This document shows, in pieces, positions 2 through 58,217 of a stretch of 64,000 bases of DNA. Origin of the DNA: Candidatus Dasytiphilus stammeri (lineage in GTDB: Bacteria; Pseudomonadota; Gammaproteobacteria; Enterobacterales; Enterobacteriaceae); NCBI GenBank assembly GCA_041941785.1, contig CP145871.1:198328-262327 (forward strand). The letters are read 5' to 3'. The translations under genes were made by a program, and so were the position numbers. How positions within the stretch are numbered: the first letter of the stretch is position 1; each line of letters opens with the position of its first letter. The notes under the pieces are model-generated. The model did not search any database and was not told where the DNA came from. It saw only the letters and a list, made by a program, of their open reading frames with translations.

Positions 2-1240
2 GTACGCGATAGATTACTAAATCTTCCTATTAAAGATAAAGATTGGATAATTATTGGATCTACACCAGAAGAATTGGTAAAACAAGGATTTAAACCCGTA
101 GGAAAAGATTTCCCAGTTTTTTTACATCCCATTAGCGGGGAAGAATATGCGCTTGCTCGTACAGAAAAAAAATCTGGAAGGGGATATAGAGGATTTACCT
201 GTTATACATCGCCAGATATTACATTAGAACAAGATCTTTACAGAAGAGATCTAACTATTAATGCTATTGCATGCGATGCACAGGGAAAATATTATGATCC
301 ATTTAATGGAAGTCATGATATTTTTCATCGACGACTTCGGCATATTTCAAATGCTTTTAGTGAAGATCCATTACGAGTCTTACGAGTAGCACGTTTTGCC
401 GCCTGTTATGACTATCTTAATTTTAAGATAGCTCCGGAAACACTCACTCTCATGCGTTCTATGTCTGCCAGTGGGGATTTAAATTACTTATCCGCTGAAA
501 GAGTTTGGAAAGAGACAGAAATTTCTTTGCGTTCTCGTAATCCTATTTTATATTTTCAGATCCTTCGAGAATGTCATGCTTTATCCTCTATTTTTCCTGA
601 AATTGATACTTTGTACCAAATCAATATCAATGCCAATCCTGAAAGAAATTTGTTAGATACTAATAATAGTACTTGTCATCCTCTCTTATCATTGTCGCTG
701 GCAGTCAGAATTAGTCACCAATTGGAAGTACGTTTTGCTTCTTTATGCCATGATGTAGGACAACTGGGTGAGTTAAAAAATTCTCTTTTTTCTAATAAGA
801 GAAGTAATTCGTGCCAGTTGCCACACATATCTAACCTAGAAAAAATGCAATTAGTAGAAAAATTCTGTCAGCGTTTACGAGTTCCCAAATGTCTACGAAA
901 TTTTTCTTTACTAGCCAATAAATGGCATTTTTTAGTACATAAAATAGAGGTAGTAGAATCTAATTCTATAATTACATTATTTAATAAAATTGATGCATGG
1001 CGGAAACCTCATCGTCTTAATCAGATTGCAGCGGTAAGTCAAGCGGTAAATGACCAGGGTCAATGTCCTCCTATTTTAGAAGACTATCCACAGGTCAATT
1101 ATCTCCGCAAGATCTTTCTTTTAGCAAGTCAGGTATCTGTAAAAAAAGTGATTCAAGATGGATATCAAGGATATGAGATTCATAAAGAATTAGATCGACG
1201 ACGTTGTGAAGCTATAAAATTTTGGAAAAAATATATATAA
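2..1240 (+). CDS. cca: CCA-adding tRNA nucleotidyltransferase, 5' end outside window
   Basis: Frame 2 is open from the window edge. It reads VRDRLLNLPIKDKDWIIIGSTPEELVKQGFKPVGKDFPVFLHP...EDPLRVLRVARF...IDAWRKP, collinear with E. coli Cca from about residue 9. The TTG at 74 in the ORF track is internal. Confidence 0.9.
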   Translation, partial: VRDRLLNLPIKDKDWIIIGSTPEELVKQGFKPVGKDFPVFLHPISGEEYALARTEKKSGRGYRGFTCYTSPDITLEQDLYRRDLTINAIACDAQGKYYDPFNGSHDIFHRRLRHISNAFSEDPLRVLRVARFAACYDYLNFKIAPETLTLMRSMSASGDLNYLSAERVWKETEISLRSRNPILYFQILRECHALSSIFPEIDTLYQININANPERNLLDTNNSTCHPLLSLSLAVRISHQLEVRFASLCHDVGQLGELKNSLFSNKRSNSCQLPHISNLEKMQLVEKFCQRLRVPKCLRNFSLLANKWHFLVHKIEVVESNSIITLFNKIDAWRKPHRLNQIAAVSQAVNDQGQCPPILEDYPQVNYLRKIFLLASQVSVKKVIQDGYQGYEIHKELDRRRCEAIKFWKKYI

Positions 1241-2667: not shown

Positions 2668-4439
2668 ATGAAGAGTCAGTCAATAGGGAGACATATTCCA
2701 TATACATTCATTAAAAATTTAATAACTCATATAGATATAGTAGAACTAATCAAATCTAATTTACCTTTAAAAAAAATAGGAAAAAATTATCGTTCCTGTT
2801 GTCCTTTTCACAATGATCAACATCCTTCTTTCACAGTGAGTAGAGAAAAACAATTATTTTATTGTTTTGGATGTGGCAAGCATGGAAATGTCATTGATTT
2901 TATAATGAATTGGCAAAATTTAAATTTTGTGGAAAGCATTGAAGAATTATCCGCTATGTATGGTTTTAAAATTCCATACGAATCTAGTAATGTTTTATCT
3001 ATTCTTATAATTCAGCGTAGAGAATATTTATTTAACATAATGAAAATAGTATGTAATTTATATCAAAAATATTTATGGGATAAAACTATAAATGCCTTAC
3101 AGGCTAGAGAATATTTAGCTCATAGAGGAATAAATTCTAAAATAATTAAAGAATTTGCTTTAGGTTTTGCTCCCGGTAGAGGAAGTACAGTGAAAGAATA
3201 TTTTGACTATTATTATCCTCAGGATCGAAAGTTATTAAAAGAAATAGGCATATTAGGATTTTATCAGGAAGAAACAAATGATTTTTTTAAAAATCGTATC
3301 ATGTTTCCAATTCGGGATAAAAGAGGTAGAGTTATGGGTTTTGGAGGACGAATTCTGAACTCATCCCATCCTAAGTATTTAAATTCCCCTACTACAAATA
3401 TTTTTAATAAAGGACATCAACTATATGGTCTCTATGAACTACATAAAAAATGTACTAGACCTTTTAAAGTGTTAGTGGTAGAAGGTTATATGGATGTTAT
3501 TTCTTTAGTACAGAATGGAATTGATTATACGGTTTCTTCCTTAGGGACAAGTACATCAATAGATCATATTCAACTTTTATTCCGTAATACTGATAATGTT
3601 ATTTATTGTTATGATGGAGATGATGCGGGTCGTCAAGCAGCTTGGAAAGTACTTAATAAATCCTTAATATATATGTTAGACGGAAGACAATTAAGTTTTA
3701 TGTTTTTACCTGAAGGAGAAGATCCGGATAGTTTAATCCGGAAAGAAGGAAAAATTCTTTTTGAAAAAAGAATATTATGTGCTCTATCTCTATCCGAATT
3801 TATGTTAAAAACTTTCTTAAAACAGGTAGATATTTCTAGCCCTGAAGGAAAAGCTAAACTTCTTACTCTAATAAGACCCTTAATTAATAAGATTCCTAGT
3901 AAAATACTACGTCTTTCTATACGATATACATTATTTCAAAAATTAGGTCTATTAGATTATAGAATATTAAAATTATTATCTCTTCAGAGAGTACCAGTTA
4001 TGAACTCTCTTCGTAGCTTCTATGTCAAAAAAAAAGAAGTAAGATGCGAGTGTTACTCAGTTTATTAGTGCAAAATCCTCATTTTTCATTATTAGTACCA
4101 GAGTTAACCGGGTTAAAGCAGTTAAAACTGAAGGGCTGGAATATTTTTTTAGAATTAGTAGTAAAATGTAAAGCTTATCCGAAAATAAAGACAGGATATT
4201 TACTAGAACAATATAGAGATACAAATTTAATAAAAACTCTTGAAATATTAGCACATTGGAACCACATGATTGATGATGCTCATTTAGAAAAAACGTTTCA
4301 GGATTTACTTACTAGTATATATGAATTAGTTTTAGAACAACGTCAAGAAAGACTTATTGCTTTAGAACGAACTCAAGGGTTGAGTATTGAAGACAAACAT
4401 GAGTTATGGTATTTAAACCAAGCATTAGCAAAAAAATAA
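2668..4439 (+). CDS. dnaG: DNA primase DnaG, reading frame interrupted by a -1 frameshift in an A9 tract (4027-4035)
   Basis: ORF 2668-4068 carries the zinc finger (CCPFHNDQHPSF...CFGCGKHG) and TOPRIM (EGYMDVISL...DGDDAGRQAA). ORF 4044-4439 carries the DnaB-binding C-terminus (LLVQNP...HELWYLNQALAKK). Adding one A to the tract joins the frames. Confidence 0.85.
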
Positions 4440-4611: not shown

Positions 4612-6432
4612 ATGGATCAAAATTCGCAGTCACAGATAAAGATTCTTGTGAATCTCGGGAGAGAACAAGGATATTTAACATATGCTGAAGTCAATGACTA
4701 TCTTCTGCAGGAGATTGTAAATGTAGATCAGGTTATAGATGCAGTTAAAATAATCAATGATATGGGTATTCCGGTTATGGAAGAAACCCCTGATGCAGAT
4801 GATCAAATACTGAATTCGGGTACATCAAGGCAAGAAGATGCAGAGGATAACCACCCTACCGACTTAATAATGTCGGGTGGAGGGATGGAAGGTCGTACTA
4901 CCGATCCAGTTCGCATGTATATGCGAGAAATGGGGAATGTAGAATTATTAACACGGCAAGGAGAAGTAGATCTCGCTAAACGTATTGAAGATGGTCTAAA
5001 TCAAGTACAATCTTCAGTAGCTGACTACCCTGGAGCTAGTTCATACATTCTTGACCAATACCATGATCTGAATAGTAGTGGTATTCGTCTTAGTGATTTA
5101 ATTATAGGTTTTGGCAATCCGAAAGCTGGTGAAATAGTAAAATACCATGCAAATATTAGGATTACTACGGATGACTTATCCTCTGAAGAACAAGGGAAAG
5201 AAGATTCCGATAATGAAAATCATATTGACCCCGTAGTGGCATGTAAAAAATTTACCTCCTTAAGGAATCAGTATGAAAAAACTTGCGCTATTATTAATAG
5301 TAAGGGGCGAGATCATCATGATACTGTTCAAGAACTAAAATATCTTTCCCAAATATTTAGGCAATTTAGGTTAATGCCTAAAGTATTTAATAAATTAGTA
5401 GAAAATATGCGCTCCATGATGGAACGATTACGGTTCCAAGAACGGAAAATTATGAAACTTTGTGTAGATCAATGTCATATGCCTAAGAAAATTTTTATTT
5501 CCTTATTTACTGGTAATGAAAGTAATGAAAATTGGTTAAAAAATGCATTGTTAAGAAAGGATCCATGGTCAAAAAATTTACATAAAGTAGTTGGTGAAAT
5601 AGTAAAAAGTCTACGAATTTTAGTAACAATTGAAGAAGAAACAGGTTTAAGTATTGAAAAGATAAAAGAGATCAATCGGAGAATGACTATTGGTGAAGCA
5701 AAAGCCGGAAGAGCAAAGAAAGAAATGATAGAAGCTAATTTGCGTCTAGTAATTTCAATAGCTAAAAAATATACCAATAGAGGACTCCAATTTTTAGATC
5801 TTATTCAGGAAGGCAATATTGGTTTAATGAAAGCAGTAGATAAATTTGAGTATCGACGGGGATATAAATTTTCAACTTATGCTACATGGTGGATTCGACA
5901 AGCTATAACCAGATCTATAGCAGATCAAGCTCGTACTATACGGATTCCAGTACATATGATTGAGACTATCAATAAATTAAATAGAATGTCGCGGAAGATT
6001 TTACAGGAAATAGGTCGAGACCCTACATCGGAAGAATTATCCGATCGAATGTTAATTTCAGAAGATAAAATTCGTAAGGTTTTAAAAATTGCAAAAGAAC
6101 CTATTTCAATGGAAACACCGATTGGTGATGAGCATGATTCTCATTTAGGAGATTTTATTGAAGATACTAATATTAAAATGCCGTTGGAGAGTGCTACATC
6201 GGACAGCTTACGAGATGCTACTCATTACATTTTAGGGGATTTAACATTCCGAGAAGCTAAAGTATTACGGATGCGTTTTGGAATTGATATGAATACAGAA
6301 CATACTTTAGAAGAAGTAGGTAAACAGTTTGATGTTACACGAGAACGTATTCGACAAATAGAGGCAAAAGCATTACGTAAATTGCGTCATCCCAGTAGGG
6401 CAGATGTTCTACGAAGTTTTCTGGATGATTAA
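4612..6432 (+). CDS. rpoD: RNA polymerase sigma-70 factor RpoD
   Basis: 606 aa with conserved regions 2 to 4 ([58 protein letters not shown]; [30 protein letters not shown]). Confidence 0.97.
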
Positions 6433-14690: not shown

Positions 14691-15374
14691 ATGATTAAAA
14701 AAGATTATTTGCGGGGCATTTCACCTCCCGAAGATGAAAAAACTCTAATAGATAGAGCATATTTACTAGCCGGATATACTTTAAGTGAGTTAGGAGGATC
14801 CAATATACCTATAAAATTGCAATATCATAAGGGATGGGTGGGAATGCTAATGGAAAAATATCTCGGAGCAGATGCCGGTAATCAATCAAAGCCAGACTTT
14901 ACCCGCATAGGGGTAGAATTAAAGACTATTCCTGTAAATTCAAATGGAATACCATTAGAAAATACATTTATTTGTGGAGTATCATTAATCAATACTATTG
15001 GTCTGACCTGGGAGCTATCTTCTGTACGTAAGAAACTTATACGAGTCTTATGGATTCCTATAGAAGGAAGTCGTAAAATACCTCTCTCTAAAAGAAGAAT
15101 AGGTAGCCCATTTTTATGGAGTCCCAGTACACAGCAAGAATTATATTTACGTCGAGATTGGGAAGATTTTATGGATTCAATTACATTTGGTAAAATAGAA
15201 GATATTACTGCCCGTAATGGGGAGTTTCTGCAAATAAAAACTAAATCCTCTTCAAGTAAATGTTTGACTGAAGCATATGATAAATATGCCCACCGTATTC
15301 GTACCCGACCGCGAGGATTTTATTTAAAAAAAAGTTTTACTAATCTTATATTAAAGAGTCAATTTTTTGAGTAA
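14691..15374 (+). CDS. mutH: DNA mismatch repair endonuclease MutH
   Basis: SPPEDEKTLIDRAYLLAGYTLSEL...PDFTRIGVELKTIPVN...RGFYLKKSFT is collinear with E. coli MutH. The ATG at 14691 is preceded by AGGA; the ORF-track start at 14688 is a TTG. Confidence 0.9.
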   Translation: MIKKDYLRGISPPEDEKTLIDRAYLLAGYTLSELGGSNIPIKLQYHKGWVGMLMEKYLGADAGNQSKPDFTRIGVELKTIPVNSNGIPLENTFICGVSLINTIGLTWELSSVRKKLIRVLWIPIEGSRKIPLSKRRIGSPFLWSPSTQQELYLRRDWEDFMDSITFGKIEDITARNGEFLQIKTKSSSSKCLTEAYDKYAHRIRTRPRGFYLKKSFTNLILKSQFFE

Positions 15375-15421
15375 ATTAAAATAATTTACTCTAATTTTTA
15401 GATATAAATTTTTCCATAAAT

Positions 15422-16147
15422 ATGTTTACATCGATAATAGTTCCAAGTACATGGATATCATTACTCACTTTAATGAGCGTAGAAATTATCCTAGGTCTTG
15501 ACAATATTATTTTAATATCTTTCCAAATATCTCATCTTCCTATTAATCAACAAAATACTGCTTTAATGTTTGGGTTAGGAGTATCAATGGTAATACGTAT
15601 TATCTTATTAAGTATTGCTAGTTGGATGCTGAAATTTACTAACCCAATATTTACTCTCTTCTTGCATAATTTTTCATTTCGGGAAGTAATTTTTTTACTT
15701 GGAGGCATATTTTTATTATGGAAATCTTTTAAAGAACTACATCATACAATTTTATTAAATTTTAATACCTCCAGCTTTTTGGCTAGAAAAAAAAATTTTT
15801 TTTCATTTGGAAAAGTAGTTGGAGAGATAATTGTGTTAGATATTCTTTTTAGCATAGATTCAGTACTGACTGCAGTCAGTATCTCTACCAATCAGACAGT
15901 AATGTTTATTGCCTTAATTTTTTCAGCAATTATCCTGTTCTTTTTTTCTAGAAAAATAGCTAAATTTCTGCACTATAACATTTTTATCAAGATATTAACC
16001 TTATCCTTTATAGGTTTATTAGGAATAGTTCTTATGCTAGAAGGAATTTTCATACATATTCCTAGAGGATATCTATATGCATCTTTATGTTTTGCTCTAT
16101 TAGTAGAAGGTTTAAATTTTTTATATAGAAAAAATAATGTTCACTAA
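15422..16147 (+). CDS. ygdQ: TerC-family integral membrane protein (YgdQ-like)
   Basis: 241 aa and polytopic. LLTLMSVEIILGLDNIILIS...LLGGIFLLWKSFKELH...HIPRGYLYASLCFALLVEGLNFLYRKNN parallels E. coli YgdQ. It is adjacent to mutH as in E. coli. Confidence 0.7.
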   Translation: MFTSIIVPSTWISLLTLMSVEIILGLDNIILISFQISHLPINQQNTALMFGLGVSMVIRIILLSIASWMLKFTNPIFTLFLHNFSFREVIFLLGGIFLLWKSFKELHHTILLNFNTSSFLARKKNFFSFGKVVGEIIVLDILFSIDSVLTAVSISTNQTVMFIALIFSAIILFFFSRKIAKFLHYNIFIKILTLSFIGLLGIVLMLEGIFIHIPRGYLYASLCFALLVEGLNFLYRKNNVH

Positions 16148-16402
16148 TAGAATTACTTGAAAGGAAACTTAGTTTCTAATATTTATCTATTGTTGGACAT
16201 CATCTGAGGGTTCGTAGGTGTCCATTATTATCTAATAAAACAGAACAAAAAAGATTATTAGAATTGGATGACATTGAAGATCCGTAGGATACAAACGCAT
16301 TAAATACTAAATAATCTCCTATCGTTAGGAAAATAACTTGATTTCCATTGTATATCAGTTGTGGACATCTTAAAAAGATATTAATCCTATTCTGGATTAG
16401 AG

Positions 16403-17371
16403 TTAATACTCTACTACTATAGAAATAGTATCGGAATAGTTCCCAGCAGTTACATTTGTCTGTTTATTATTAACCGATACTTGATATGTAATTAATTGAG
16501 GACTACCTAAACCTGTAAAACCTAATTTACTATTTTTATTCCAGATAATATTCGTGTCAGGATGATAAATATTATATTGGATATAATGAGCTAGTCCATC
16601 ATTCATTTGTCTCCATCCTCCATGAAAAAAATTACCATCCGTAAACCAAACATTGAAATGTTCTTTTTTAGTGCAGCTTACAGTGATATGAGCAGTTAAT
16701 GGGGTAACTTTATCTAGTGAAGTGGTAGAACCCAAATCAATATCATTGATTGTATTTATTAAACATTCTTTATTTACTGACCCATGTACTTTGACAGTAG
16801 TAAATCCTTTTCCTTTCCAATTAGAAAAACATAGAAATAATGTACCTACTCGACAAATAGAATATTCCCATTTCATTTGAATCTCGTCTTCATAAAGTCC
16901 CGAAGCAACGTTACTACTGGGCTGAGTTTTTATATAGAGAGGAATTTCACTATTATTTGAGGAAAATATTAATGACAGTAAATTTAATTTATCGAAGTCT
17001 ATCTCTTGTCCTACTTTATAAGCATACTGATAATTTTTATCTGGATATATTAGATATGGAATATCTTCTTCTGTTGAAGGATCTTGATTTTTCAGCTTCA
17101 TGTTATTTAAAGTGGAAAGAATCTGCGCTCTAATAGTATTATGAGTTAAAAAGGTAGCATTAAATCCTGAACAAATCATACCTGACTTTCCGGAAGACTG
17201 GATAGATCCGTGAAGTAGACTAAAGGAATTAGTCGATCCTAAACTTACATCGCCATGAGAAAAAGTACAATCTCCTCTGGTTACAGGAAGATAGAAAAGA
17301 GCAATAATAATTGGAAAAATTTTTATATAATTCAAGGGATAATTAAAATTATTATTTTCCTTTACTTGCAT
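16403..17371 (-). CDS. Two-domain SCPU (spore coat protein U-like) pilus tip subunit / putative adhesin (CsuE-like)
   Basis: 322 aa, with a signal-like N-terminus (IKIFPIIIALFYLPVTRG/DC) and several Cys pairs. The C-terminus ends in the SCPU signature AGNYSDTISIVVEY. It is the last gene of the operon and overlaps the usher stop by 10 nt. Confidence 0.7.
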   Translation of the reverse strand: MQVKENNNFNYPLNYIKIFPIIIALFYLPVTRGDCTFSHGDVSLGSTNSFSLLHGSIQSSGKSGMICSGFNATFLTHNTIRAQILSTLNNMKLKNQDPSTEEDIPYLIYPDKNYQYAYKVGQEIDFDKLNLLSLIFSSNNSEIPLYIKTQPSSNVASGLYEDEIQMKWEYSICRVGTLFLCFSNWKGKGFTTVKVHGSVNKECLINTINDIDLGSTTSLDKVTPLTAHITVSCTKKEHFNVWFTDGNFFHGGWRQMNDGLAHYIQYNIYHPDTNIIWNKNSKLGFTGLGSPQLITYQVSVNNKQTNVTAGNYSDTISIVVEY

Positions 17372-19932
17372 AGTAGTTGTAATCCTCGAGTTGATATATC
17401 TTCGGATGGTTGATTAACTACTACTTTACAAGTAGTATTATTGTCAGATCTAGTAATAAGAAGTAGATAATGCTTGTTCTTATTGATATCTTTAATGAAG
17501 ACTTCTCCTTCTAAGCCTGACCAAGTAATCTGGGAAGTACCTATTATCCTCACTAGACTACCTGGAGGTAAAAAGTGACCTTCTTGATCAATCACTGAAA
17601 AAAAAGCGGATTGAGGACTAGATAGATCAAAATTTACTATATAACCACTCCGGTCCTTAAGGATAAATTTTCTAATTGTTGAAGGAATCTCAATTCCCGC
17701 TGAAATATTTTTAGGATCAATGGATATGGTAGCAGGATACCATGATGGTACAGATGAAACTAATAAATATCCCTTACTATCAGTTTTTCCAATAAAGCTG
17801 TTTTCATAAAAAATAGGGATATTTTGATATCCATTAGTTGATATTAGTACGAATCCATCATTAATAGGTGAGGAAAAATTAATATATTTTCCTATAGACA
17901 CTAAGGCACCACTTAATTGCAACCATAGGTTGGAATAATTATTCACTTCATCTAAACCTACTTGAGTAGCAAAATATTGATTTTTCCAAATAATATTAGC
18001 TTGATGTAAGGTATCATCAGTATTTTTTTTAGAAAAAATAACATTCCATCCTATCCCTTCATAATATGGAATACTTCTATTCCATGATTGACTTATGAAG
18101 GAATTATGCTCTTCATCTACGTCAGATACAAAAGATGTATTTCCAAAACTATTTAAAGGTATACTTAACATTAAGTGTGCTTTATACCCTGATTTTATAC
18201 CCGTATATTTATTTATTGAAGTCCATAAATTAATATCCCTTCCTAACGAAGTACTATATGAAATATTTAATTCTTTTAATCTTTTTTTATTTAGGTCTTG
18301 GTTTTCCAGAAAATTTAAACTCACATTGCTAGACTGACTCAAATTCAAGGAACCATTAATTTGAGTAAAATGGTGAACTAAGTCGTTTGATGACTGACTC
18401 GCATAATTTAATAACTCACTATAATTTCCAATTCGGTAGTTATATTGAGCATTGAAATTTAAGAATGTATTCTGGTATGTATATCCTAAGTTTATCTGTT
18501 GTCCTGTATAGTGCCAATTACTGTCATTCCATTTATGAGAATTCATATTAAATTTAAAGAGAGATCTAATATTATTAGTGTCTACAGCAGGAACAGAATA
18601 CACTGGAGTTCTGTTTTCTTTGGTGGCACTACTGATACTCCATGAAATATTTACTATTCCTAAAAGGAAACATTTTATATCACCTCCTAGTCCTATATTA
18701 AAAAAATTTTTAGTACTTTCTACTATTGTATTAACTGTTATCCATGGTGCTAACCCATATCTTATAAATCCCTTTAAAGACATATCCGAATCATAATCAA
18801 AAGATTTTTGTCCGTAATGTCGTCGTAAAGATCCTAATGATAGACTAAAATCAGTGCTACCTACATTAAGGATATTTCTATCTATATAAAAAGGCACTTT
18901 TATTCGTTTAGAGCGACCTAATAAATCGGATGTTAGGATAGTAGCCATATTATAACCATTGAAATATCCTAAATTATTTATCAACTGAAATTTGCCTGCA
19001 CTAATTGGTCTAGATATTATTTTATCATTATTTATATATACATCTAATATACTAGGCATAGTAGCATATCCACTAATGTTAGGTAAGGAATAGGTAATTG
19101 TCTCAGGATGTATATTGAATTGTCGGGATACTTTAATTCCCACCATTCGCACTGGAGAATAGCCAGTAAAAACATCAGTAGTATAATCACCTATTATATA
19201 GTGCAACATATGTTGTTCGCTATTCATACTCCATTGAGTTTCATAACGTATGTAGGATGATTTTTTTATATTTTGATTTAATAAACTGTTAATTCGTAAT
19301 ATTCCCGTATGTGAGAAGACACCTATGCGATTAAATAATCTAATCTCTGACCATAATGAAGATTTAACTTTTTTATTCTTTTTAAGAAAGGTATTTAAAT
19401 ACCAGTCATAGTTTAATATTACTCCGAAAGAACTTTTACCTGCTTCTTTGTTTAGAAGGGGAGAGTTGATCGGCCTAATTTTTTTTTGTGGCCACCAAGA
19501 ATAAGGTACATCTATAAAAAATCTTTGCATATTTGGATCATATTTAGTAATTAAATTACTTACTAAATCTAGAGCTATCTCATTGTGAGAAAAATTGTGT
19601 ACTTTTCCGAAGATTATCTTATCAAAATTAAATCCTATTTGTTTCAATGAGTCTATTGACATATAAAAATGTCTATTTTTATATTTGACGGGAAATATTT
19701 TGTGCGTAACATTGCCATTAATCACTAGTTCTAAATATAACTGACTACTGCTATTAGCTAAAATATTTTGATTAATTTTACCTTCAGCACCAGGGATAAA
19801 AAAGAGGAGTAAAAATAAATAACACTCAATTATTCGGAAAATTCCACTTTTAGTGGCGTCGTAATATATGGACAAATTATTTGTTTTGAACCAAATTAAA
19901 AAAGGGAATAGTTTTAATTTCTGGTCGCTCAT
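17362..19932 (-). CDS. Outer-membrane fimbrial usher (CsuD/FimD/PapC family)
   Basis: 856 aa, the right size and position (after the chaperone) for an usher, rich in aromatic-terminated beta-strand repeats. The N-terminal region has LYLELVINGNV...SLKQIGF. The start is ambiguous: ATG 19932 overlaps the chaperone by 56 nt, whereas TTG 19875 lies 1 nt after the chaperone stop and is followed by a signal-like segment (FRIIECYLFLLLFFIPGAEG). Confidence 0.85.
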   Translation of the reverse strand: MSDQKLKLFPFLIWFKTNNLSIYYDATKSGIFRIIECYLFLLLFFIPGAEGKINQNILANSSSQLYLELVINGNVTHKIFPVKYKNRHFYMSIDSLKQIGFNFDKIIFGKVHNFSHNEIALDLVSNLITKYDPNMQRFFIDVPYSWWPQKKIRPINSPLLNKEAGKSSFGVILNYDWYLNTFLKKNKKVKSSLWSEIRLFNRIGVFSHTGILRINSLLNQNIKKSSYIRYETQWSMNSEQHMLHYIIGDYTTDVFTGYSPVRMVGIKVSRQFNIHPETITYSLPNISGYATMPSILDVYINNDKIISRPISAGKFQLINNLGYFNGYNMATILTSDLLGRSKRIKVPFYIDRNILNVGSTDFSLSLGSLRRHYGQKSFDYDSDMSLKGFIRYGLAPWITVNTIVESTKNFFNIGLGGDIKCFLLGIVNISWSISSATKENRTPVYSVPAVDTNNIRSLFKFNMNSHKWNDSNWHYTGQQINLGYTYQNTFLNFNAQYNYRIGNYSELLNYASQSSNDLVHHFTQINGSLNLSQSSNVSLNFLENQDLNKKRLKELNISYSTSLGRDINLWTSINKYTGIKSGYKAHLMLSIPLNSFGNTSFVSDVDEEHNSFISQSWNRSIPYYEGIGWNVIFSKKNTDDTLHQANIIWKNQYFATQVGLDEVNNYSNLWLQLSGALVSIGKYINFSSPINDGFVLISTNGYQNIPIFYENSFIGKTDSKGYLLVSSVPSWYPATISIDPKNISAGIEIPSTIRKFILKDRSGYIVNFDLSSPQSAFFSVIDQEGHFLPPGSLVRIIGTSQITWSGLEGEVFIKDINKNKHYLLLITRSDNNTTCKVVVNQPSEDISTRGLQLLCK

Positions 19933-20725
19933 TGATCTGAGCTGTTAATATTTTTCTTCCTCTTAACGAGGCATCAATTGGAAAAATTATTTCATTACCT
20001 GGTAGGACATAACCTAGTAATCCATCACTGACCAAATATTTATTTTTATTATCTTCTAAGTATACTTCACTTAGTTTAGCATGTATGGTTCCTTCATTAC
20101 GAATATGTAAGTAATTTTTATCTTTTTCCTTAAGAAGGAAATAATGTAATTTGGGAGTAGAAATAATACAATTCTTATTGAGATGATGTAAAATATCTGA
20201 TGGAGATTTTATGTTAGGACCATACACAAATAATGGGATAGAATAACGCATTTTGAATTTTAATTCGATGTTCTTTTTTGGAACATTATCGTTATAATTA
20301 TTTACGCGAGGAATTTCATCAATGATTATACGATATGCTTTTTCCTCATATTTAGAAGGAGATCTTATCTTAACTAAACGTAGGAGTTGTTTTTGTCCCG
20401 AGGCAATTAATACTATTGGTGGACTAACTACTATATCATTTTGTTTTTCCAGCAGGGATGTATTCTGTTTTTGTTTCCAGCTAAAAATGCGTATTTGTAA
20501 TAAAATATCATTTTTATCCAAATTTTCTAACCATAACAAGGTTGTATTATCATTACATTCAATCATGGGATCAATTGGCCAAATATTTAATGAGGCAGCT
20601 GATACTACTGGAATAGTTCCTATTATTATAGATACAACTATCAACCATCCGCTTAATCTTATTTTGTAATCCATACAATTAGTTTTTCTCCCTATCTTCT
20701 GCTCTTTATTATCTATAGAGATCAT
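19877..20725 (-). CDS. Periplasmic pilus chaperone (PapD-like, CsuC-type)
   Basis: 282 aa with an N-terminal signal/anchor (LSGWLIVVSIIIGTIPVVSA). Typical chaperone strands are LNIWPIDPMI...LLWLENLDKNDILLQIRIFSW and SPPIVLIASGQKQLLRL. Confidence 0.85.
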   Translation of the reverse strand: MISIDNKEQKIGRKTNCMDYKIRLSGWLIVVSIIIGTIPVVSAASLNIWPIDPMIECNDNTTLLWLENLDKNDILLQIRIFSWKQKQNTSLLEKQNDIVVSPPIVLIASGQKQLLRLVKIRSPSKYEEKAYRIIIDEIPRVNNYNDNVPKKNIELKFKMRYSIPLFVYGPNIKSPSDILHHLNKNCIISTPKLHYFLLKEKDKNYLHIRNEGTIHAKLSEVYLEDNKNKYLVSDGLLGYVLPGNEIIFPIDASLRGRKILTAQINERPEIKTIPFFNLVQNK

Positions 20726-20903
20726 TAGGATTTATCTCTAATGTATATACATAAATTTCTTTTGACACTGTGTACTTTTTTTATTATTTAGCCACCTTTT
20801 TTTTAATAAAACTATTAAGATAGTTATCTTAGAGGAAATATTCTTCAATTAAATATAAATTTCTTTCTAAAAAGCAACATTTTTTGTTCTTTTTAAGATT
20901 TAT

Positions 20904-21410
20904 TTACCAGCTAAGGGTAATAGTCAACATATCTAGATATGTGCCCGCACTAGGAACCACTTGTTTGGGTACACGACCGTAAATTATTAAGGGCATATTT
21001 TCTCCATTTGCTTTGTTACTTAATATTTCAGTGCTATTCCATAGTAAGGAATATGTTGCATCTTTATACAGATCATATTTTATAAATTCATTTTTTTCTC
21101 CTTTCATTCTTCTTTGTGTGCCTTCCGGTTGTAATCCATTACTTAGAGTTAGATGATAAGATACTCCTTTTGTACAATTAACACCCAATGTCACATTTAC
21201 TGACTTTGAGTTAGTAGTCGTATCTATTACATTATTAATATTTGGATGTTCTCCGAAATCTAAGCTCCCAAAGTTCAGAGCTTGTCCTCCAGTAATTTCA
21301 CAACCATTACCTATAATCATATGGACTCCAATATTTCCTGATATTTGTCCGGTTGCATAAATGGAAGTGGAGAAAAATAAGCTAGTTATTAACAATAATA
21401 TTTTGTTCAT
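20904..21410 (-). CDS. Major pilin subunit, SCPU (spore coat protein U) domain, CsuA/B-like
   Basis: 168 aa with signal peptide MNKILLLITSLFFSTSIYA/TG. It has two conserved Cys (GNGCEI, GVNCTKG), LNFGSLDFG, and the C-terminal SCPU motif AGTYLDMLTITLSW. It is the first gene of the operon. Confidence 0.8.
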   Translation of the reverse strand: MNKILLLITSLFFSTSIYATGQISGNIGVHMIIGNGCEITGGQALNFGSLDFGEHPNINNVIDTTTNSKSVNVTLGVNCTKGVSYHLTLSNGLQPEGTQRRMKGEKNEFIKYDLYKDATYSLLWNSTEILSNKANGENMPLIIYGRVPKQVVPSAGTYLDMLTITLSW

Positions 21411-21492
21411 AATTTTTCTTCCATATTTAGAAAAAGTAAATATTGAATATTATTCTATTATAACTCTCTTTTTTCAGAGAAAAAAAAATTAT

Positions 21493-22461
21493 TTATTTTT
21501 TTAGCATATATGCTAAAAAAGGATCCTGTTTTCCCCATAAAAAAATATCTTTTTTACTTGAAAATCCCCTTTCATAAGCACGTAAACTTCTCAAAAACGT
21601 ATAAAAATCTAAATCTTGAGAAAAATAGGTAGCATATAATTTTGTTACGATTGCATCTGCTTTCCCTCTAATAATACGAGCTTTTCTTTCTGCTTCCGCT
21701 AATGTACGTGTTACATTATAATCTGATACTGCACGAATTTTTTCAGACTGTTCTTTACCTTGTGATCTGTGATGACGGGCATCGGCCTCTCGTTCGGCAC
21801 GCATTCTGTTATAGATAGCTTCAGATACTTCCGAGGGTAAGCTAATTTGCTTTATTCGTACATCAATAACTTGTATACCTAACCTTGCTACACTGTTCTG
21901 TTGAATATTATCGGAACGAGCTAAAATGGAATTTTTAGATGTTGAAACAACTAAATGATTTTTTTCATCGTCCCAATTATGATTAGTACCGTCATTTAAT
22001 GCTTGGAGAACGGTAGAAGTTAATTTTCCTCTAGAATCCGTTACAATATCTTTAACATTCAAGCGTCCTATCTCGGACCGTAATCTATCACTAAATTTTC
22101 GTTTTAGTAAATTTTCGGCCTGAAAAATATCTCCTCCCCCAGTAGTAGCATAAAAACTGCTAAAATCACTAATTCGCCACTTGATATAAGAATCCACTAT
22201 TAAATCTTTCTTTTCCTTCGTAACAAACCGATCTGCTTGATTAACCATTGTTTGAAGACGAGAATCAAAATATTGAACAGAGTCAATAAAGGGAGTTTTC
22301 ATATGCAATCCCGGCAAAAATAATAACGGATAATGATTATTATCACGAAGTACTTTTCCAAAACGTAACAAAATTCCACGCTGCCCTTCTTCTACTGTAA
22401 ACACAGAAAAATTTAGCAAAAATGCTATTAAACTGACCAAGATAATTAAATATTTACGCAT
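21493..22461 (-). CDS. hflC: FtsH modulator HflC (SPFH/band 7)
   Basis: 322 aa with an N-terminal anchor and an SPFH domain. It immediately follows hflK as in E. coli. Confidence 0.9.
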   Translation of the reverse strand: MRKYLIILVSLIAFLLNFSVFTVEEGQRGILLRFGKVLRDNNHYPLLFLPGLHMKTPFIDSVQYFDSRLQTMVNQADRFVTKEKKDLIVDSYIKWRISDFSSFYATTGGGDIFQAENLLKRKFSDRLRSEIGRLNVKDIVTDSRGKLTSTVLQALNDGTNHNWDDEKNHLVVSTSKNSILARSDNIQQNSVARLGIQVIDVRIKQISLPSEVSEAIYNRMRAEREADARHHRSQGKEQSEKIRAVSDYNVTRTLAEAERKARIIRGKADAIVTKLYATYFSQDLDFYTFLRSLRAYERGFSSKKDIFLWGKQDPFLAYMLKK

Positions 22462-22530
22462 TACTTATTCTCTCTATAATTAACTCTACACCTACTGATT
22501 GCTTTATCCTAGAGTGATGAATGTCAAGAA

Positions 22531-23679
22531 TTAATGTTGTGTTTTATTTACTGGAATTTTGCTATTATAAATCTTTCGTGGAACAGAATAACTGTTATAA
22601 TGAGTCATGTTATTCGTTAAAAATTGTGGTACTGACATAATCACTACAGGATGATTAGTTTCATCATTAAATATAAAATTACGAGTATTTCTTATAATAT
22701 GTTCCATAGTTTCAATATACAAACGTTTTTTAGTTACTTGAGGATACGCTTTATATTGTGATAAAATTTGATTAAATTGCATCACTTCACCTTGTGCTTC
22801 CAGGATAGAACGAATTTTATAAGCATATGCATTTTCAATAATTCGTTGTGCTTGTCCATTTGATTTAGGTTGTACTTCATTGGCATAGGCTTCTGCTTCT
22901 CGTATGTATTGTTGTTCATTTTCTCGCGCAGCTATTGCATCATCAAATGAGGACTTAACTTCTTCAGGGGGACGTGCTGCTTGGAAATTAACATCTAGTA
23001 TCCTTAGTCCCATATCATATGGAAGGATAGTTTTTTCTAATTCTCTTTGAGTATCACTACGTATAATAGTACGACCTTCCGTAAGGATAGTATCCATACT
23101 ATATTTGCTAATTACCCCACGTAATGCACTGTCAGTAGCTTGTCGTAAACTATCATCAGGATTAGCAACGGAAAATAGATATTTACTGGGATTAGCCACC
23201 CGATACTGTATGTTCATTTCCACATGAACTACATTTTCATCCGAAGTCAGCATTATTCCTGATGCTGCTAGTTGTCGGACAGTTTCTACATTAACAGTAT
23301 GAACGTTATCAATAAATTTTAATTTCCAATTTAAACCTGGTTCCACGATATGATTTAATTTACCAAAACGGGTAATAACTCCTCGATCAGTTTCTTGAAT
23401 AGTATAAAAACCACTGATTATCCACATAATTAAAGGAATAATTATTAATAGGACAGATATCAGTTTTTCTAACGAAAAGTTACTGTACGGATGGTTGCTA
23501 GAAATCCTAATTAGATTATTTTGGAATCCTAATTTAGGAAAAACATTATAGAATATATAACGTAATATATTATAATTATTATTACGATAATTTTTGTTAA
23601 TATTTTTCATTTCATTATGATGAACTTTTGTCCAGAAAGTAACCATATCTCGAATCGTTCCTTGAAATCTATACCACAT
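22531..23679 (-). CDS. hflK: FtsH modulator HflK (SPFH/band 7); start codon uncertain
   Basis: SGFYTIQETDRGVITRFGK...LRILDVNFQAARPPEEV matches HflK. The Gly-rich E. coli N-terminus is replaced by an N/Y-rich low-complexity segment, so the true start may be internal. Confidence 0.9.
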   Translation of the reverse strand: MWYRFQGTIRDMVTFWTKVHHNEMKNINKNYRNNNYNILRYIFYNVFPKLGFQNNLIRISSNHPYSNFSLEKLISVLLIIIPLIMWIISGFYTIQETDRGVITRFGKLNHIVEPGLNWKLKFIDNVHTVNVETVRQLAASGIMLTSDENVVHVEMNIQYRVANPSKYLFSVANPDDSLRQATDSALRGVISKYSMDTILTEGRTIIRSDTQRELEKTILPYDMGLRILDVNFQAARPPEEVKSSFDDAIAARENEQQYIREAEAYANEVQPKSNGQAQRIIENAYAYKIRSILEAQGEVMQFNQILSQYKAYPQVTKKRLYIETMEHIIRNTRNFIFNDETNHPVVIMSVPQFLTNNMTHYNSYSVPRKIYNSKIPVNKTQH

Positions 23680-24069
23680 TATTTTTCTGTACTCCAGTAG
23701 GTACTAGTTACTAATATAATATTTTATTTTTGGTAAAAAGAAAAATGTAATATACTTAAAAAGTAAGGACGAAATTTAAGAAATAAGGTTGATTAAATAT
23801 TTTATACAGGAATAATAGTATAATTATATTTTACCTTTTTTTATAAAAAAAAGGTTCTGGAGATCCAGCTCTAATAATAAATATATTTTTGGAAGCTCAA
23901 TAATAATCTTAGAGAGTAATTATTTAGGATCAATATAAATTATTGATTAATTTATCTCTCTAACTACTAGTTAGTAGTATTTATAATTACCCATCTTAAG
24001 AAGATTATAATCAAATGTGGATAAATAACCTTGCGATAATTTAAAGAATTATAATTTTTTCTATAAGAT

Positions 24070-26838: not shown

Positions 26839-27775
26839 AGTTTTTATAATAATTAAAAATTTTAGTAACTCAGATTATCTTAGATCTATATATCCTCTTG
26901 AACCTTATTAAACAATAATAGGAGGCTAATAATTAGGATTTTTTTAGTTCTTGATTTTTTTAATAAATTACTGCACAAATTTTAGTCACCTTTGTTTTCA
27001 AGAAAATATCTTACAATTGACTAACTTAAATATTATTGATAACCAATCAGAAGATACCATTACTCTTGTCCCAGAAAATGATATATATCAGCGTACGCAC
27101 CATGTACTATGTATCTTAAGAAATTTTGTTGCCTAACCACTATGAGGAGAAATAATTCTTTCATTCTTCTCTTAGATTAGCTAAAAATTAGATCCTAGGA
27201 ACCCTATAAGCTAGTTTTATGAGATTTTTGTATTCTCCACATGATTTTCACATTTTTATCCTATTTCTTTCCCGATATAGTATTTATGCACTTTATGTAC
27301 TTATCCAAAGTATTCATCCTGTATTCTGGCACCATTAATTCGGGATAATTCAATAATACCAGCATTATAACTTATGAGTTTTTAACTAATCCACCTGATA
27401 TTAATGCTATTTTTTTTAGGGCATAATAATAGCTCCAGCTGTGTCCTATGTCTGCTAGTAATCCCGAAGAAATATCTATTTAAAATATAATCTTGTTTCC
27501 ATTAGAGCCATTTCTACATAAAATTTGACAGGGTCGAGAAGACGACCATAAATTTATAAAGCAGTCTAATGCTTCCTGTCCTGATCGGAGCATTAATTCA
27601 TAAATATGCATTTTTTACTCTCTCAGATTTGAGTACTACAATCTTCTTTGTAGTACAGATATCATATGGTAACTGAGCATGATAATAAATAATCATATCG
27701 AGAGATTACTTTTAAAATTTAAATCAATTAATATGTAAATGTTACTTACTATCATTTTTTAAAATAAAATATTGA

Positions 27776-27851
<76 letters not shown>

Positions 27852-35601: not shown

Positions 35602-35844
35602 CTAGTGGTGATTTATTTTAGGTACATCCTTACCACCTGCTGTCAAAGGATGACATCTTAATATACGTTTTACTGTTAACCAACTACCTTTGATTACTCC
35701 TAATTTACTTATAACTTCAATAGCATATTGAGAACAGGTTGGTTCAAAACGACAATTAGGACGTAATAGCACACTAATAAAATATTGATAGTGGTGAATG
35801 ATTGAGATTATCAGTCGTCTTCCAGAATACAAAAATTTTTCCAT
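35602..35844 (-). CDS. yidD: Membrane protein insertion efficiency factor YidD
   Basis: [37 protein letters not shown]. It overlaps the 3' end of rnpA. Confidence 0.85.
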
Positions 35845-36167
35845 AATATTTTTAATATGTTTAGAATTGAATTATTATTTTTTTTAATTAAAGATTTTTT
35901 TATAATTACAATAAAATCTATCGATCTTAGATAATTTTGATGTAAACGAAAACTTTCTCGTATAAGTCTTTTAATTCTATTCCGTTCATGTGCTGGCTTA
36001 ATTACTTTTTTACTTATACATATTCCCACCCGTGGGTATTCTAGAAAATTAGTTCGATAGATGATCGTAATATCTGTGATAAAAAGGGATTTTGAATTTC
36101 GAAAAACATCTCTAAATTTTTTATCATTATCTAACCGCAATATCTTTGGAAATTTATATCTTTCCAT
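35811..36167 (-). CDS. rnpA: RNase P protein component
   Basis: The RNR motif [16 protein letters not shown] is present, 118 aa, downstream of rpmH. Confidence 0.9.
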
Positions 36168-36191
36168 TTTTACTTTTTAAGTAAAATTAAA

Positions 36192-36335
36192 TTATGAATT
36201 AGCAATGCTCAAACAAGATCGTTTTTTAGCACGACGTCGAGCAAAAATCTTACGTCCATTTTTAGTGGACATTCTAATACGAAAACCATGACTACGATGC
36301 CGCTTGATTACGGAAGGTTGAAAAGTACGTTTCAT
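36192..36335 (-). CDS. rpmH: 50S ribosomal protein L34 (below the ORF-track length cutoff)
   Basis: Manual translation gives [47 protein letters not shown] (47 aa), a near match to E. coli L34. Confidence 0.9.
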
Positions 36336-36555
36336 AATTCACTTCTTTTTTTAGATAAAAATATCTAATATTAATAAGGGAGTCAATAAAATTTAAAAAA
36401 AAATTTCTTTTTTCTGACGTCACGATATTATTTTAAATCCACAAGATGTAATTTAATATTAACTGTGATAAAATTCAATATTTAAGCTCCAAATTATAGG
36501 ATTAAAAAACCTGACCCGAAATAACTTATTTATTATAATATTTTAAAAATATTTT

Positions 36556-37659
36556 ATGAAATTTACTATAAAACGTGAACAATTACTAAAACCATTACAA
36601 CAAACTACTAGAACTATTAGTAATAAACCCTTATTGCCTATAATTAATAATATTCTTCTCAAAGTAAGTCAAGGAACATTATGGTTAACTTCTACTGATC
36701 TTGAAATAGAGATGAAAACACATCTTCTTCTAACAGAACCATATGAACCAGGTTTAATTACTGTCCCAGCCAGAAAATTATTAGAAATTTGTAGATGTTT
36801 GCCCGCTAATTGCGACATAAGTGCTTCTCTAAAACAAGAACAAATGTTGTTAACTTCTGGAAATAGTAAGTTTTATTTAGCTACTTTATCAGCAGATAAT
36901 TTTCCAAATTTAGACGACTTTATAAATGAAATCGAGTTTACTATTAACCAAAATATAATGAAACATTTGATAGAAGCTACCGCTTTTTCTATGGCACGAC
37001 AAGATGTACGTTATTACCTTAATGGTCTTTTGTTAGAGGTTAATGGTAGAGAACTGTGTACTGTAGCTACTGATGGACATCGGTTATCTTTTTGTAAGAC
37101 CATTTTAAGTAAAAGTTTTTCTTACACTGCAATTATTATACCAAGAAAGACAGTAATCGAAATTTTAAGGTTATTAGAAAATAATGAACAATTATTAAAA
37201 ATCAAGTTTAGTAAAAATCATATGAGACTATATCTCACTAATTGTATTATTACATCTAGAATTATCGATGGACAGTTTCCTAATTATCGTACAGTATTAC
37301 AAAATAATTATGATAAACTAGTATTAGTAGAAGCAGATTTATTGAGATCTGCTTTATCTCGTGCTTATATTCTGGCTAATGAAAGATTACACGGAGTATG
37401 TTTAGATTTTAAAACCAATAGGTTAAAAATTACTGCTACTAATATGGCACAAGAAAAAGCGGAAGAACTAGTGGATGTTATTTATAAAGGTGAACATTTA
37501 AGTATAATTATTAATGTTAGATACCTCTTAGATGTATTGCAAATTTTAAAAGACGAAAATATTCAGATCTTTCTCATAGATTCAGAATCGAGTATTCAAA
37601 TTAAAAGAGTTACGATTTATTCAGATGATATGTATGTAATAATGCCAATGCAATTATAA
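36556..37659 (+). CDS. dnaN: DNA polymerase III beta sliding clamp
   Basis: MKFTIKREQLLKPLQQ...VATDGHRLS...PMQL, 367 aa. Confidence 0.95.
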   Translation: MKFTIKREQLLKPLQQTTRTISNKPLLPIINNILLKVSQGTLWLTSTDLEIEMKTHLLLTEPYEPGLITVPARKLLEICRCLPANCDISASLKQEQMLLTSGNSKFYLATLSADNFPNLDDFINEIEFTINQNIMKHLIEATAFSMARQDVRYYLNGLLLEVNGRELCTVATDGHRLSFCKTILSKSFSYTAIIIPRKTVIEILRLLENNEQLLKIKFSKNHMRLYLTNCIITSRIIDGQFPNYRTVLQNNYDKLVLVEADLLRSALSRAYILANERLHGVCLDFKTNRLKITATNMAQEKAEELVDVIYKGEHLSIIINVRYLLDVLQILKDENIQIFLIDSESSIQIKRVTIYSDDMYVIMPMQL

Positions 37660-37779
37660 TGTAACTTAAAATATAATTTTATAGTAATAAAAGTTTACCT
37701 GCATCTTTTTCCAAATAATAAATTATTGATATATCCTCCTACTAAGAATTTGTTAACAATTTAATTGTTATATAAGTGA

Positions 37780-40185
<2,406 letters not shown>

Positions 40186-57028: not shown

Positions 57029-57754
57029 TTATTTTTAAACCTGAATCCTTTTTCTATGAAAGATAACAACTAAAAGTTAACTTACATCCATGTTAAATCA
57101 CGAAAGTGAAACTACATTGCCCAATCCATAATAGCTTATCCGATAGCTAATCGACTGATTCTATCTCGTCATACACTCACTATCAATTCTATACTTTTTT
57201 TCTATAAATGCCTGCGAAAATTTTTATTATATCTACTTATTTTATTGAGTACGTACTCTAAAGATATTTAATAGTCATTAGTACTAGTGAATTTATTCTA
57301 TAAAAGTAATTTATGAAAAAAACTTATTTAATATTATCTCTCTTTATCTATCTTAATTTGATAAGAAGATAAATATTTGCTAAATATTGGACCAATTATT
57401 AAGAATTGGTAACACTATTTTACATTCAGTTACGGTATGTTAAAATATTTTTGTTGGTTAGTCGAGTATTATGTTTTTTTAGAGTGACCAGAAAAATATA
57501 TTCTGTCAGATCTGTATTTGGGTAACAAATTTTTACTTAAAATGAAGTATTTCGATATCTTGAGGAGATAATATTTTTACTTTATATAAGTTATTTTAAG
57601 AAATTTTATTGATTATTTTAGGTTATTTTGAACATAAAAGTGTAAATTGCTACTAATCTAGTATTAGTAGATATAAACTACTTGGGTACGATTTTGATCC
57701 TTAAAACTATCTAGCGTTGTTTTTTTATGAGATAAAAACTAATATAATAAAAAA

Positions 57755-58213
57755 TTAGGTTGAGGGAGTATAAGTACTATACATATCTTTATTTAGTTTG
57801 ATATTCTCTAAAAAGCTTTCTAAAATTAGTGCCGCAGAAAGCGAATCTATATTATCTTTAGTCAGAGCCTTCCGTCCTCTCCGGAGGAATAATTGTTGAC
57901 GTGCTTCTACGGTGGTTAATCTTTCATCATGGAATTGAATAGGTATTTGAAATCTAATTTTTATTTGATTTGCAAACAACCTGGTATATCGAGTGACTGA
58001 TTGTTCAGTGCCATCCATATTTAATGGAAGTCCTATAATAATAGTATCTGGTTGCCATTGACAGAGATGTATCTTAATTTGCTGCCAATCTGGTCCACGA
58101 TTAATTGTTTTAAGAGATCCTAAAGGAGTGGCAGTATTAGTAATGTTTTGTCCTATGGCTATCCCAATACTTTTAATACCAAAATCAAATGCTAAAATTG
58201 TCTTCAATGTCAT
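57755..58213 (-). CDS. ruvX: Putative pre-16S rRNA nuclease / Holliday junction resolvase-like YqgF
   Basis: ILAFDFGIKSIGIAIGQ...IIIGLPLNMDGTEQ...FHDERLTTVEA. It lies 5 nt downstream of gshB. Confidence 0.9.
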   Translation of the reverse strand: MTLKTILAFDFGIKSIGIAIGQNITNTATPLGSLKTINRGPDWQQIKIHLCQWQPDTIIIGLPLNMDGTEQSVTRYTRLFANQIKIRFQIPIQFHDERLTTVEARQQLFLRRGRKALTKDNIDSLSAALILESFLENIKLNKDMYSTYTPST

Positions 58214-58217
58214 TTTA

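Follow-up and report, generated by a model that had tools for sequence, protein, structure and literature searches.

The closest described systems to the locus considered here are two sigma-class (archaic) chaperone-usher pili, CupE of Pseudomonas aeruginosa (cupE1-E6) and Csu of Acinetobacter baumannii (csuA/B-A-B-C-D-E). Csu pili carry a tip subunit, CsuE, which binds via three hydrophobic finger loops (L40ALA43, I140VGIGV145, and L157GI159), and the minor subunits CsuA and CsuB are needed for functional pili in A. baumannii (Pakharukova et al. 2018, PMC6003481). Csu pili, and by modeling CupE pili as well, also stack pilus to pilus in antiparallel sheets to form three-dimensional biofilms (PMC12996565). 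Here we describe an operon of the same type in the beetle symbiont "Candidatus Dasytiphilus stammeri", located in a 64,000-nucleotide stretch of contig CP145871.1, which we refer to in its entirety as the window. Its identity as a sigma-class, Csu/CupE-type operon is secure, and we consider it probable that it is a functional, streamlined pilus operon that descended vertically from a free-living enterobacterial ancestor and is kept by purifying selection. Taken by itself, the system is a typical representative of a known family, and it is of note for the setting in which it persists and for the strength of its conservation.

Obligate intracellular symbionts normally lose adhesins at an early stage, and a decayed homologue in Serratia symbiotica, described below, illustrates this expected fate. 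There are mutualists in which surface appendages are kept for transmission, namely the flagella of Wigglesworthia and the Mad fimbriae of Photorhabdus, whose roles were shown experimentally. Both offer a parallel, in that a dispensable surface organelle is kept for passage to the next host generation, but their machinery is different (a flagellum and classical fimbriae), and for Dasytiphilus the role is one that we infer. Our literature searches returned no precedent for chaperone-usher pili in bacteriome or reduced-genome symbionts, which is not proof that there is none.

Ca. Dasytiphilus stammeri is the bacteriome symbiont of dasytine beetles. Twenty of its genomes, of 437-601 kb and 28-34% GC, have been described (Wierz et al. 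2024, PMC11191362); the function conserved among them is the provisioning of tyrosine. A first-pass annotation of the window, which was made from the sequence alone, had thus guessed correctly that the DNA came from a stripped-down symbiont. The main text of PMC11191362 mentions neither pili, fimbriae, nor ushers, and the operon genes appear only in its supplementary file 02, as KEGG cupE, fimC, and fimD orthogroups. No paper discussing these genes was found in the literature searched, and their GenBank annotation is generic. Wierz et al. do propose, untested there and without molecular evidence, an extracellular transmission via the gut and the egg surface, as symbionts were not seen in ovaries, were seen in the gut, and females have a specific connection between bacteriome and gut (PMC11191362). 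For comparison with the window strain, we collected the corresponding loci of eight other strains from a scan of GTDB species representatives. Four belong with it to the Listrus clade (Lsp00, Lsp01, Lsp02, and Lsp04), three to the Dasytastes clade (Dsp01, Dsp02, and Dsem), and one to the Dasytes clade (Daer).

Identity and composition of the operon

The open reading frame (ORF) listing gives four uninterrupted, co-directional genes on the minus strand between window positions 16403 and 21410 (Table 1), with the same coordinates as in the first-pass annotation, and both C-termini quoted there, GTYLDMLTITLSW and GNYSDTISIVVEY, are present. All four N-termini resemble signal peptides upon inspection. 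In profile searches, each of the four proteins matched its family (SCPU, PapD_N, or Usher) above the Pfam gathering score, the SCPU cutoff being 22.4 bits, while the NCBIfam matches to fimbrial chaperone and usher families were weak and sub-threshold only. The gene order, pilin(s)-chaperone-usher-tip, is that of the sigma-class (Csu/CupE-type) family. The Csu-like archaic identity originally read from the ORFs is likewise borne out by the best solved relatives, which are CsuC, the CupE rod, CsuA/B, and CsuE, and by an usher model that resembles FimD.

In the pilin, the signal peptide MNKILLLITSLFFSTSIYA is followed by an N-terminal donor strand. This protein matched the P. aeruginosa CupE rod (8CIO, 1e-21) and CsuA/B (7ZL4, 4e-7) in the PDB, and its donor-strand-like N-terminus aligns to CupE1, which is a view of donor-strand exchange at the level of sequence only. 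The signal peptide of the chaperone ends in VVSA, followed by AS. With a threshold of E <= 0.01, the only chaperone matches in the PDB were CsuC entries (8.6e-36); both domains are aligned, including the IWPI-P strand and the MRYSIPLF-YG donor strand, and the chaperone belongs to the CsuC type, not to the classical one of PapD and FimC. A search of the PDB with the usher sequence found no match. Its AlphaFold model, with a predicted local distance difference test (pLDDT) score of 76.3, matched full-length FimD (3RFZ_B, 5e-40) over 848 columns and also aligns with PapC, such that the FimD/PapC alignments span about 840-850 columns. The model shows a plug as well as N- and C-terminal domains like those of FimD, and the usher is predicted to be full length, with an N-terminal domain, a 24-strand barrel containing the plug, and C-terminal domains. 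A C-terminal cysteine pair is invariant in 17 usher homologues.

Like the window operon, the CupE operon encodes its pilin(s), chaperone, usher, and two-domain tip protein in that order, and the pilins of both share the N-terminal donor strand and a C-terminal G-TY-D-L-T--W motif. However, CupE has three pilins rather than one and is switched on by the PprAB two-component system, whereas no regulator is evident at the window operon; their hosts also differ, as one is a free-living opportunist and the other a 0.5-Mb endosymbiont. With Csu, the window operon shares a CsuC-like chaperone and a tip protein that resembles CsuE over its full length, but it is without the CsuA and CsuB adaptor subunits. 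We found no minor or adaptor pilin in the window or the other Listrus strains and a single extra pilin in the Dasytastes and Dasytes clades; the number of minor pilins varies among sigma-class members and is not family-defining. The ushers of Izhakiella, Erwinia, and Pseudomonas were among the closest free-living relatives found, with 26-29% identity to the window usher. The Izhakiella and Erwinia (Erwiniaceae) SCPU operons have five genes (two pilins, chaperone, usher, and tip), as in the Dasytastes- and Dasytes-clade Dasytiphilus, and the related Pseudomonas operons have 3-4 pilins in the same gene order. These operons are very divergent, have a different neighborhood, and are functionally uncharacterized.

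Table 1. Coordinates of the operon features in the window, with ratios of nonsynonymous to synonymous substitution (dN/dS) for the operon and flanking genes
Feature	Window position	Strand	dN/dS	Remarks
Candidate -10 box TATAAT	21457..21462	-		Putative; within the hflC-pilin spacer (82 bp), 46 nt 5' of the pilin ATG
Major pilin, SCPU, 168 aa	20904..21410	-	0.12-0.22	Pfam SCPU 1e-29
Pilin-chaperone spacer	20675..20903	-		Second pilin gene here in other clades, from sister-strain comparison
Periplasmic CsuC-like chaperone, 265 aa	19877..20674	-	0.39-0.72	Pfam PapD_N 7.9e-16; probable start from sister strains; ORF to 20725 (282 aa)
Outer-membrane usher, 837 aa	17362..19875	-	0.37-0.47	Pfam Usher PF00577 2.1e-26, residues 258-758; probable TTG start; ORF to ATG at 19932 (856 aa)
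Two-domain tip adhesin, 322 aa	16403..17371	-	0.19-0.39	Pfam SCPU 4.2e-32, in two stretches; CsuE match
hflC (flank)			0.26-0.32	
hflK (flank)			0.36-0.46	
ygdQ (flank)			0.37-0.57	
mutH (flank)			0.20-0.38	

Sister strains and the age of the operon

The order hflK-hflC-(pilin(s)-chaperone-usher-tip)-ygdQ(TerC)-mutH is common to all eight sister strains. Wherever the contig covers it, each operon gene is one uninterrupted frame, the pilin being intact in seven of seven such strains, and the presence of intact orthologues in sister genomes, which the first-pass annotation had proposed to check, is thereby established for eight strains. As also noted there, the slot between hflC and ygdQ is the junction of two E. 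coli-syntenic blocks. This position might be taken as a sign of recent horizontal acquisition or of an assembly chimera, as might the fact that the closest tip homologues are found in Serratia and on a metagenome contig and not in the Erwiniaceae. Nevertheless, we regard such an origin as exceedingly improbable. The operon occupies the same slot in the same orientation in three clades that differ by 6-10% in 16S, and its amino-acid identities drop across these clades in step with those of the flanking genes. Its GC (29-33%) and GC at third codon positions (GC3; 20-24%) are native, with both inside the range seen for the 38 other genes of the window (mean values for the window are 32% and 19.5%). 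A chimera is further contradicted by the identical sequence in the NCBI metagenome-assembled genome of "Candidatus Dasytiphilus stammeri", in which the usher protein is 100% identical, and by the same DNA in two independent Logan assemblies. From the shared slot, the congruent divergence, and the native GC3, the operon therefore predates the split of the three clades and has been in this slot since; on these comparisons, acquisition later than their common ancestor is refuted. That the operon is old and vertically inherited, rather than a relic or a recent transfer, is well supported by the sequence data.

The window strain carries a minimal four-gene version of the operon. While the major pilin was detected by tblastn in every strain examined, a second SCPU pilin lies between it and the chaperone in Dsp01, Dsp02, and Dsem, with a divergent copy in Daer (sister loci L006, 4521-5027; L007, 4509-5006; L010, 4502-5032; and L008, about 4662-5162). 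No remnant of this gene was found in the pilin-chaperone spacer of the Listrus clade (roughly 180-230 bp), and we take the two-pilin layout as ancestral, with a presumed loss of the second pilin in the Listrus clade. The published table (PMC11191362) records the usher and one SCPU orthogroup for 16 of the 20 strains, a second SCPU orthogroup for five, and the chaperone for 17 if one counts a remnant with no KEGG orthology number in Listrus sp. 07. Our clusters of the tip protein contain 16 member sequences, in agreement with the 16 strains of the table. We also considered whether the pattern of five in 20 might reflect loss of the major pilin from most strains, and rejected this based upon tblastn, as the orthogroup concerned is the second pilin.

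Purifying selection on the operon genes

We estimated pairwise dN/dS within the Listrus clade by the Nei-Gojobori method (NG86), which is crude for AT-rich genomes, although with the flanking genes there is an internal control for this bias. The first-pass annotation had reckoned with values near 1 in the event of decay, whereas those of the operon are well below 1 and comparable to those of the housekeeping genes on either side (Table 1). Codon bootstraps were performed for three independent pairs (window-Lsp01, window-Lsp00, and Dsp02-Dsem), and dN/dS was >=1 in at most four of 1,000 bootstraps for any operon gene in any pair. For window-Lsp01, the estimates were 0.17 for the pilin (95% confidence interval 0.10-0.29), 0.37 for the tip (0.26-0.52), 0.44 for the usher (0.36-0.54), and 0.39 for the chaperone, with 0.25-0.38 for the flanking genes. 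Purifying selection on the operon is thus well supported, as judged from codon substitutions.

The pattern among the genes also bears upon what kind of product is selected. It could be something other than a pilus, such as the usher serving as a channel in a porin-poor envelope without lipopolysaccharide (LPS), or a tip displayed on the usher without a rod. Consistent with this, there are no LPS synthesis genes in the published table, the Listrus clade appears to have lost its second pilin, and the usher and chaperone evolve faster than the pilin and tip. However, the pilin and tip are the best conserved and the usher the least, while selection for a channel alone predicts the reverse, and the usher model retains the plug and both the N- and C-terminal domains as in FimD. 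We find this explanation improbable.

The closest named homologue of the tip protein, with 40% identity, is from the aphid symbiont Serratia symbiotica, in which a 3.05-Mb contig has a Csu-type operon of the same layout as that of Dasytiphilus. Unlike the intact Dasytiphilus operon, it is a string of pseudogenes (sister loci L018, 3244-8930, and L019): its first pilin gene is in pieces, a frameshift and stops interrupt the chaperone, a stop and a break the usher, and only 291 aa are left of the truncated tip. The Dasytiphilus operon might similarly be on its way to loss, as a relic without current function that has not yet eroded. Genome erosion is still ongoing in this lineage (PMC11191362), and the operon is absent or a remnant in four of the 20 strains. 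What argues against neutral persistence is that about 5 kb of coding sequence at roughly 30% GC has stayed free of stops in nine strains from clades as divergent as those compared here, that dN/dS is significantly below 1 and equal to that of neighboring housekeeping genes, and that actual decay looks like the S. symbiotica homologue. We consider the relic interpretation highly improbable and largely refuted.

The tip adhesin and its finger loops

The tip protein consists of a CsuE-like N-terminal receptor domain (residues about 34-190) and a C-terminal SCPU pilin domain (about 191-322). Its phmmer alignment with CsuE (6FJY_B, 7.8e-10) covers residues 40-322, and the tip is about 18-20% identical to CsuE. 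An AlphaFold model built from a 12-sequence alignment (pLDDT 73.6) has CsuE as its top Foldseek match (3.7e-17, template modeling score of 0.71), which answers the structural comparison suggested in the first-pass annotation; FimH and CfaE-type two-domain adhesins are ranked next. Across the 12 tip homologues, six cysteines are invariant. Word-indexed protein searches returned almost only Dasytiphilus orthologues, and an alignment query with the tip added only S. symbiotica and one metagenome protein, such that the structure predictions rest on shallow alignments (12 sequences for the tip and 17 for the usher). A profile search with the tip alignment gave 2,139 relatives at E <= 1e-3 and 75 at E <= 1e-30, and most of the best matches are 310-350 aa long and comprise both domains at full length. 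This places the receptor domain in a large known family.

The first-pass annotation had recognized no motif in the receptor domain, which does not hold, as the domain is CsuE-like and has candidate counterparts of CsuE fingers 1 and 2. Finger 1 (LALA) aligns with tip residues 70-77, FNATFLTH, of which T73, L75, and T76 are invariant and H77 is nearly so among the Dasytiphilus orthologues, while pLDDT is <50 at residues 72-74. Finger 2 (IVGIGV) aligns with the hydrophobic loop C173-RVGTLFL-C181, whose two cysteines are invariant across all 12 homologues, that of Serratia included, and this finger is probably stapled by a disulfide. Relative to CsuE, finger 1 is more polar (T, H, and N) and finger 2 is shorter and bracketed by its cysteine pair. 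Finger 3 has no counterpart in the tip alignment; it is in any case specific to A. baumannii (PMC6003481). In the alignment, both putative finger segments vary little inside each clade and consist largely of hydrophobic residues, and the finger principle appears to be retained.

These features are also relevant to a further explanation, in which a functional pilus binds the bacteria to each other, either in the bacteriome lumen or in a transmitted inoculum. Stacking is known for the archaic Csu pili and modeled for CupE, as described above, and no operon gene is more strongly conserved than the pilin (Table 1). Conversely, the N-terminal domain of the tip (dN/dS 0.20-0.36) is as constrained as its C-terminal pilin domain and the putative finger loops are kept, whereas a function of the rod only would need neither. 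Cell-to-cell aggregation as the selected function is accordingly one that we consider unlikely, even though it ranks first among the alternatives, ahead of a non-pilus role of the usher and then neutral persistence.

Gene starts and expression signals

The four frames are intact as first annotated, but the starts of the chaperone and usher had been placed too far upstream, and we revised them to 20674 and 19875, respectively. For the chaperone, the ATG at 20674 (MDYKIRL..., 265 aa) is the only one conserved in the sister strains and is most likely the start. The chaperone and usher ORFs share 56 nt, with an alternative TTG 1 nt past the chaperone stop, both of which had been seen previously. 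The TTG at 19875 is most likely the usher start, which would imply translational coupling with the chaperone; it is favored because a stop codon in strain Lsp02 upstream of the TTG position renders the upstream ATG unusable there and because the usher call of NCBI likewise gives 837 aa from this TTG. Further downstream, the usher and tip genes share 10 nt (17362-17371), as the first-pass annotation had stated.

All four of the Listrus-clade strains that were compared keep the TATAAT in the hflC-pilin spacer (Table 1). In Dasytastes- and Dasytes-clade strains, this spacer contains a conserved, near-consensus sigma-70 arrangement of TTGACA-16 nt-TACAAT/TACACT (locus L006, about 3930-3965, with equivalents in L007, L010, and L008), which is unusual conservation for intergenic DNA here. 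As an operon promoter, the conserved spacer motif is suggestive only, and the operon could also be transcribed by read-through from hflKC. A promoter scan of 15300-22600 gave 39 sites versus 45.8 expected and is uninformative in such AT-rich DNA, and a terminator scan of the same interval found one terminator-like site, on the wrong strand. A hairpin past the tip stop (16382-16399; -7 kcal/mol) was considered as a terminator and rejected, as 16 of 200 shuffled sequences fold equally well (z = -1.45).

Assembly machinery and proposed function

The published table (PMC11191362) lists bamA, secY, and lepB for all 20 strains, and bamD and secA also appear among its entries, as does an OmpA-family porin for at least 19 of the strains. 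degP is listed for 19 strains, with no entry for Listrus sp. 01. Only the two Danacea strains, which are also without the operon, have no entry for dsbA and surA (PMC11191362); this co-absence is a single evolutionary event and counts as weak evidence. Not listed for any of the 20 strains are skp, the flagellar structural genes, dnaA, and hfq (PMC11191362). With the machinery that is listed, a route via Sec, DsbA, chaperone, usher, and Bam/SurA is therefore available in the operon-bearing strains, and the table as a whole suggests an outer membrane that is without LPS but still hosts beta-barrel proteins, including the usher.

By analogy with the Csu and CupE systems, all four proteins would be exported via Sec, and in the periplasm the CsuC-like chaperone would take up both subunits, pilin and tip adhesin, through donor-strand complementation. 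The usher, placed in the outer membrane by Bam and SurA, would be primed by the chaperone-tip complex and would then polymerize the single pilin into a thin fiber by donor-strand exchange. Such a fiber would bear the CsuE-like tip, whose protruding and largely hydrophobic finger loops may bind a surface. Adhesion would presumably occur outside of the bacteriocyte, either on the egg surface or in the young larva, at its cuticle-lined gut or at the entrance to the bacteriome.

The most likely role would be attachment during transmission or during colonization of the larval gut or bacteriome, which we infer because the pilus is the only listed surface appendage, the tip resembles adhesins for hydrophobic or variable surfaces, and a route via the gut and egg has been proposed independently. 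More specifically, we suggest, as a tentative proposal of less than even likelihood, that the symbiont builds archaic pili and uses them during an out-of-body phase, when it is on the surface of the egg and inside the gut of the larva. The first-pass annotation had similarly argued for a selected role at the host interface. Selection is supported by dN/dS, while the role is still a matter of interpretation and the operon is not indispensable, as evident from the four of 20 strains.

Several observations weigh against a functional pilus. The lack of a complete operon in four of the 20 strains is the chief reason for caution: neither strain of Danacea nigritarsis is listed with any operon gene, nor is Dasytes lineellus, and the entry for Listrus sp. 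07 is limited to a chaperone-like remnant (PMC11191362), such that either the pilus is dispensable in some hosts or those four assemblies are incomplete. There is only one pilin in the window strain, whereas A. baumannii requires both CsuA and CsuB (PMC6003481). dsbB and all lpx, lptD, and kds genes are unlisted (PMC11191362), which makes for an atypical outer membrane and a DsbA without a listed re-oxidant. Pfam detected none of PapC_N, PapC_C, and PapD_C in the window proteins even at E <= 10, which we attribute to sequence divergence; the integrity of these regions is predicted from the structure model and the CsuC alignment. The putative promoter is no more than a conserved motif, and the hairpin 3' of the tip gene is not significant.

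Most Dasytiphilus lineages nonetheless keep a full pilus machine despite having no listed dnaA, hfq, flagella, or LPS genes, and the operon is a concrete, testable candidate for the proposed transmission step via gut and egg surface. If the tentative proposal is correct, the operon would represent the first molecular determinant for the extracellular transmission of a bacteriome symbiont, and where it is absent (the Danacea clade, Dasytes lineellus, and Listrus sp. 07), the host would have an altered transmission route. The Listrus-clade operon is also a natural minimal four-gene archaic pilus and as such of interest for studies of fiber assembly.

Remainder of the window

Every other window ORF that was scanned is a housekeeping gene, in line with the statement of the first-pass annotation that the operon is the sole non-housekeeping content. 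The gene losses listed there were also recovered in most cases. Neither dnaA nor recF is present at 35811-40185, where rnpA (minus strand), dnaN, and gyrB are tightly packed, with gaps of about 390 bp (dnaA) and about 130 bp (recF). hfq and hflX are both lost from between miaA and hflK, which is their location in E. coli, and about 390 bp (23680-24069) separates the two genes. yqgE is absent, as gshB and ruvX are 4 nt apart (57029-58217). No part of the window is lower in GC than the 726 bp from ruvX to yggT, the expected place of yggS, and no ORF there exceeds 39 aa, in line with decay of that gene. Upstream of mutL, at the place of amiB and tsaE in E. coli, about 940 bp (26839-27778) contains no ORF >61 aa and is probably decayed sequence.

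An Rfam scan of the window found three tRNAs only. At 74-1240 (plus strand), a cca-like ORF with a TTG start matches the last third of the PolyA_pol head domain and the RNA-binding domain, and either its start was mis-called or it is N-terminally truncated. Lastly, dnaG (2668-4439, plus strand) is split into two overlapping ORFs, one of 466 aa with the zinc ribbon, catalytic core, Toprim, and DnaB_bind regions and the other of 131 aa with the DnaG_DnaB_bind C-terminal domain, which could be due to a frameshift, a sequencing error, or a true split gene.

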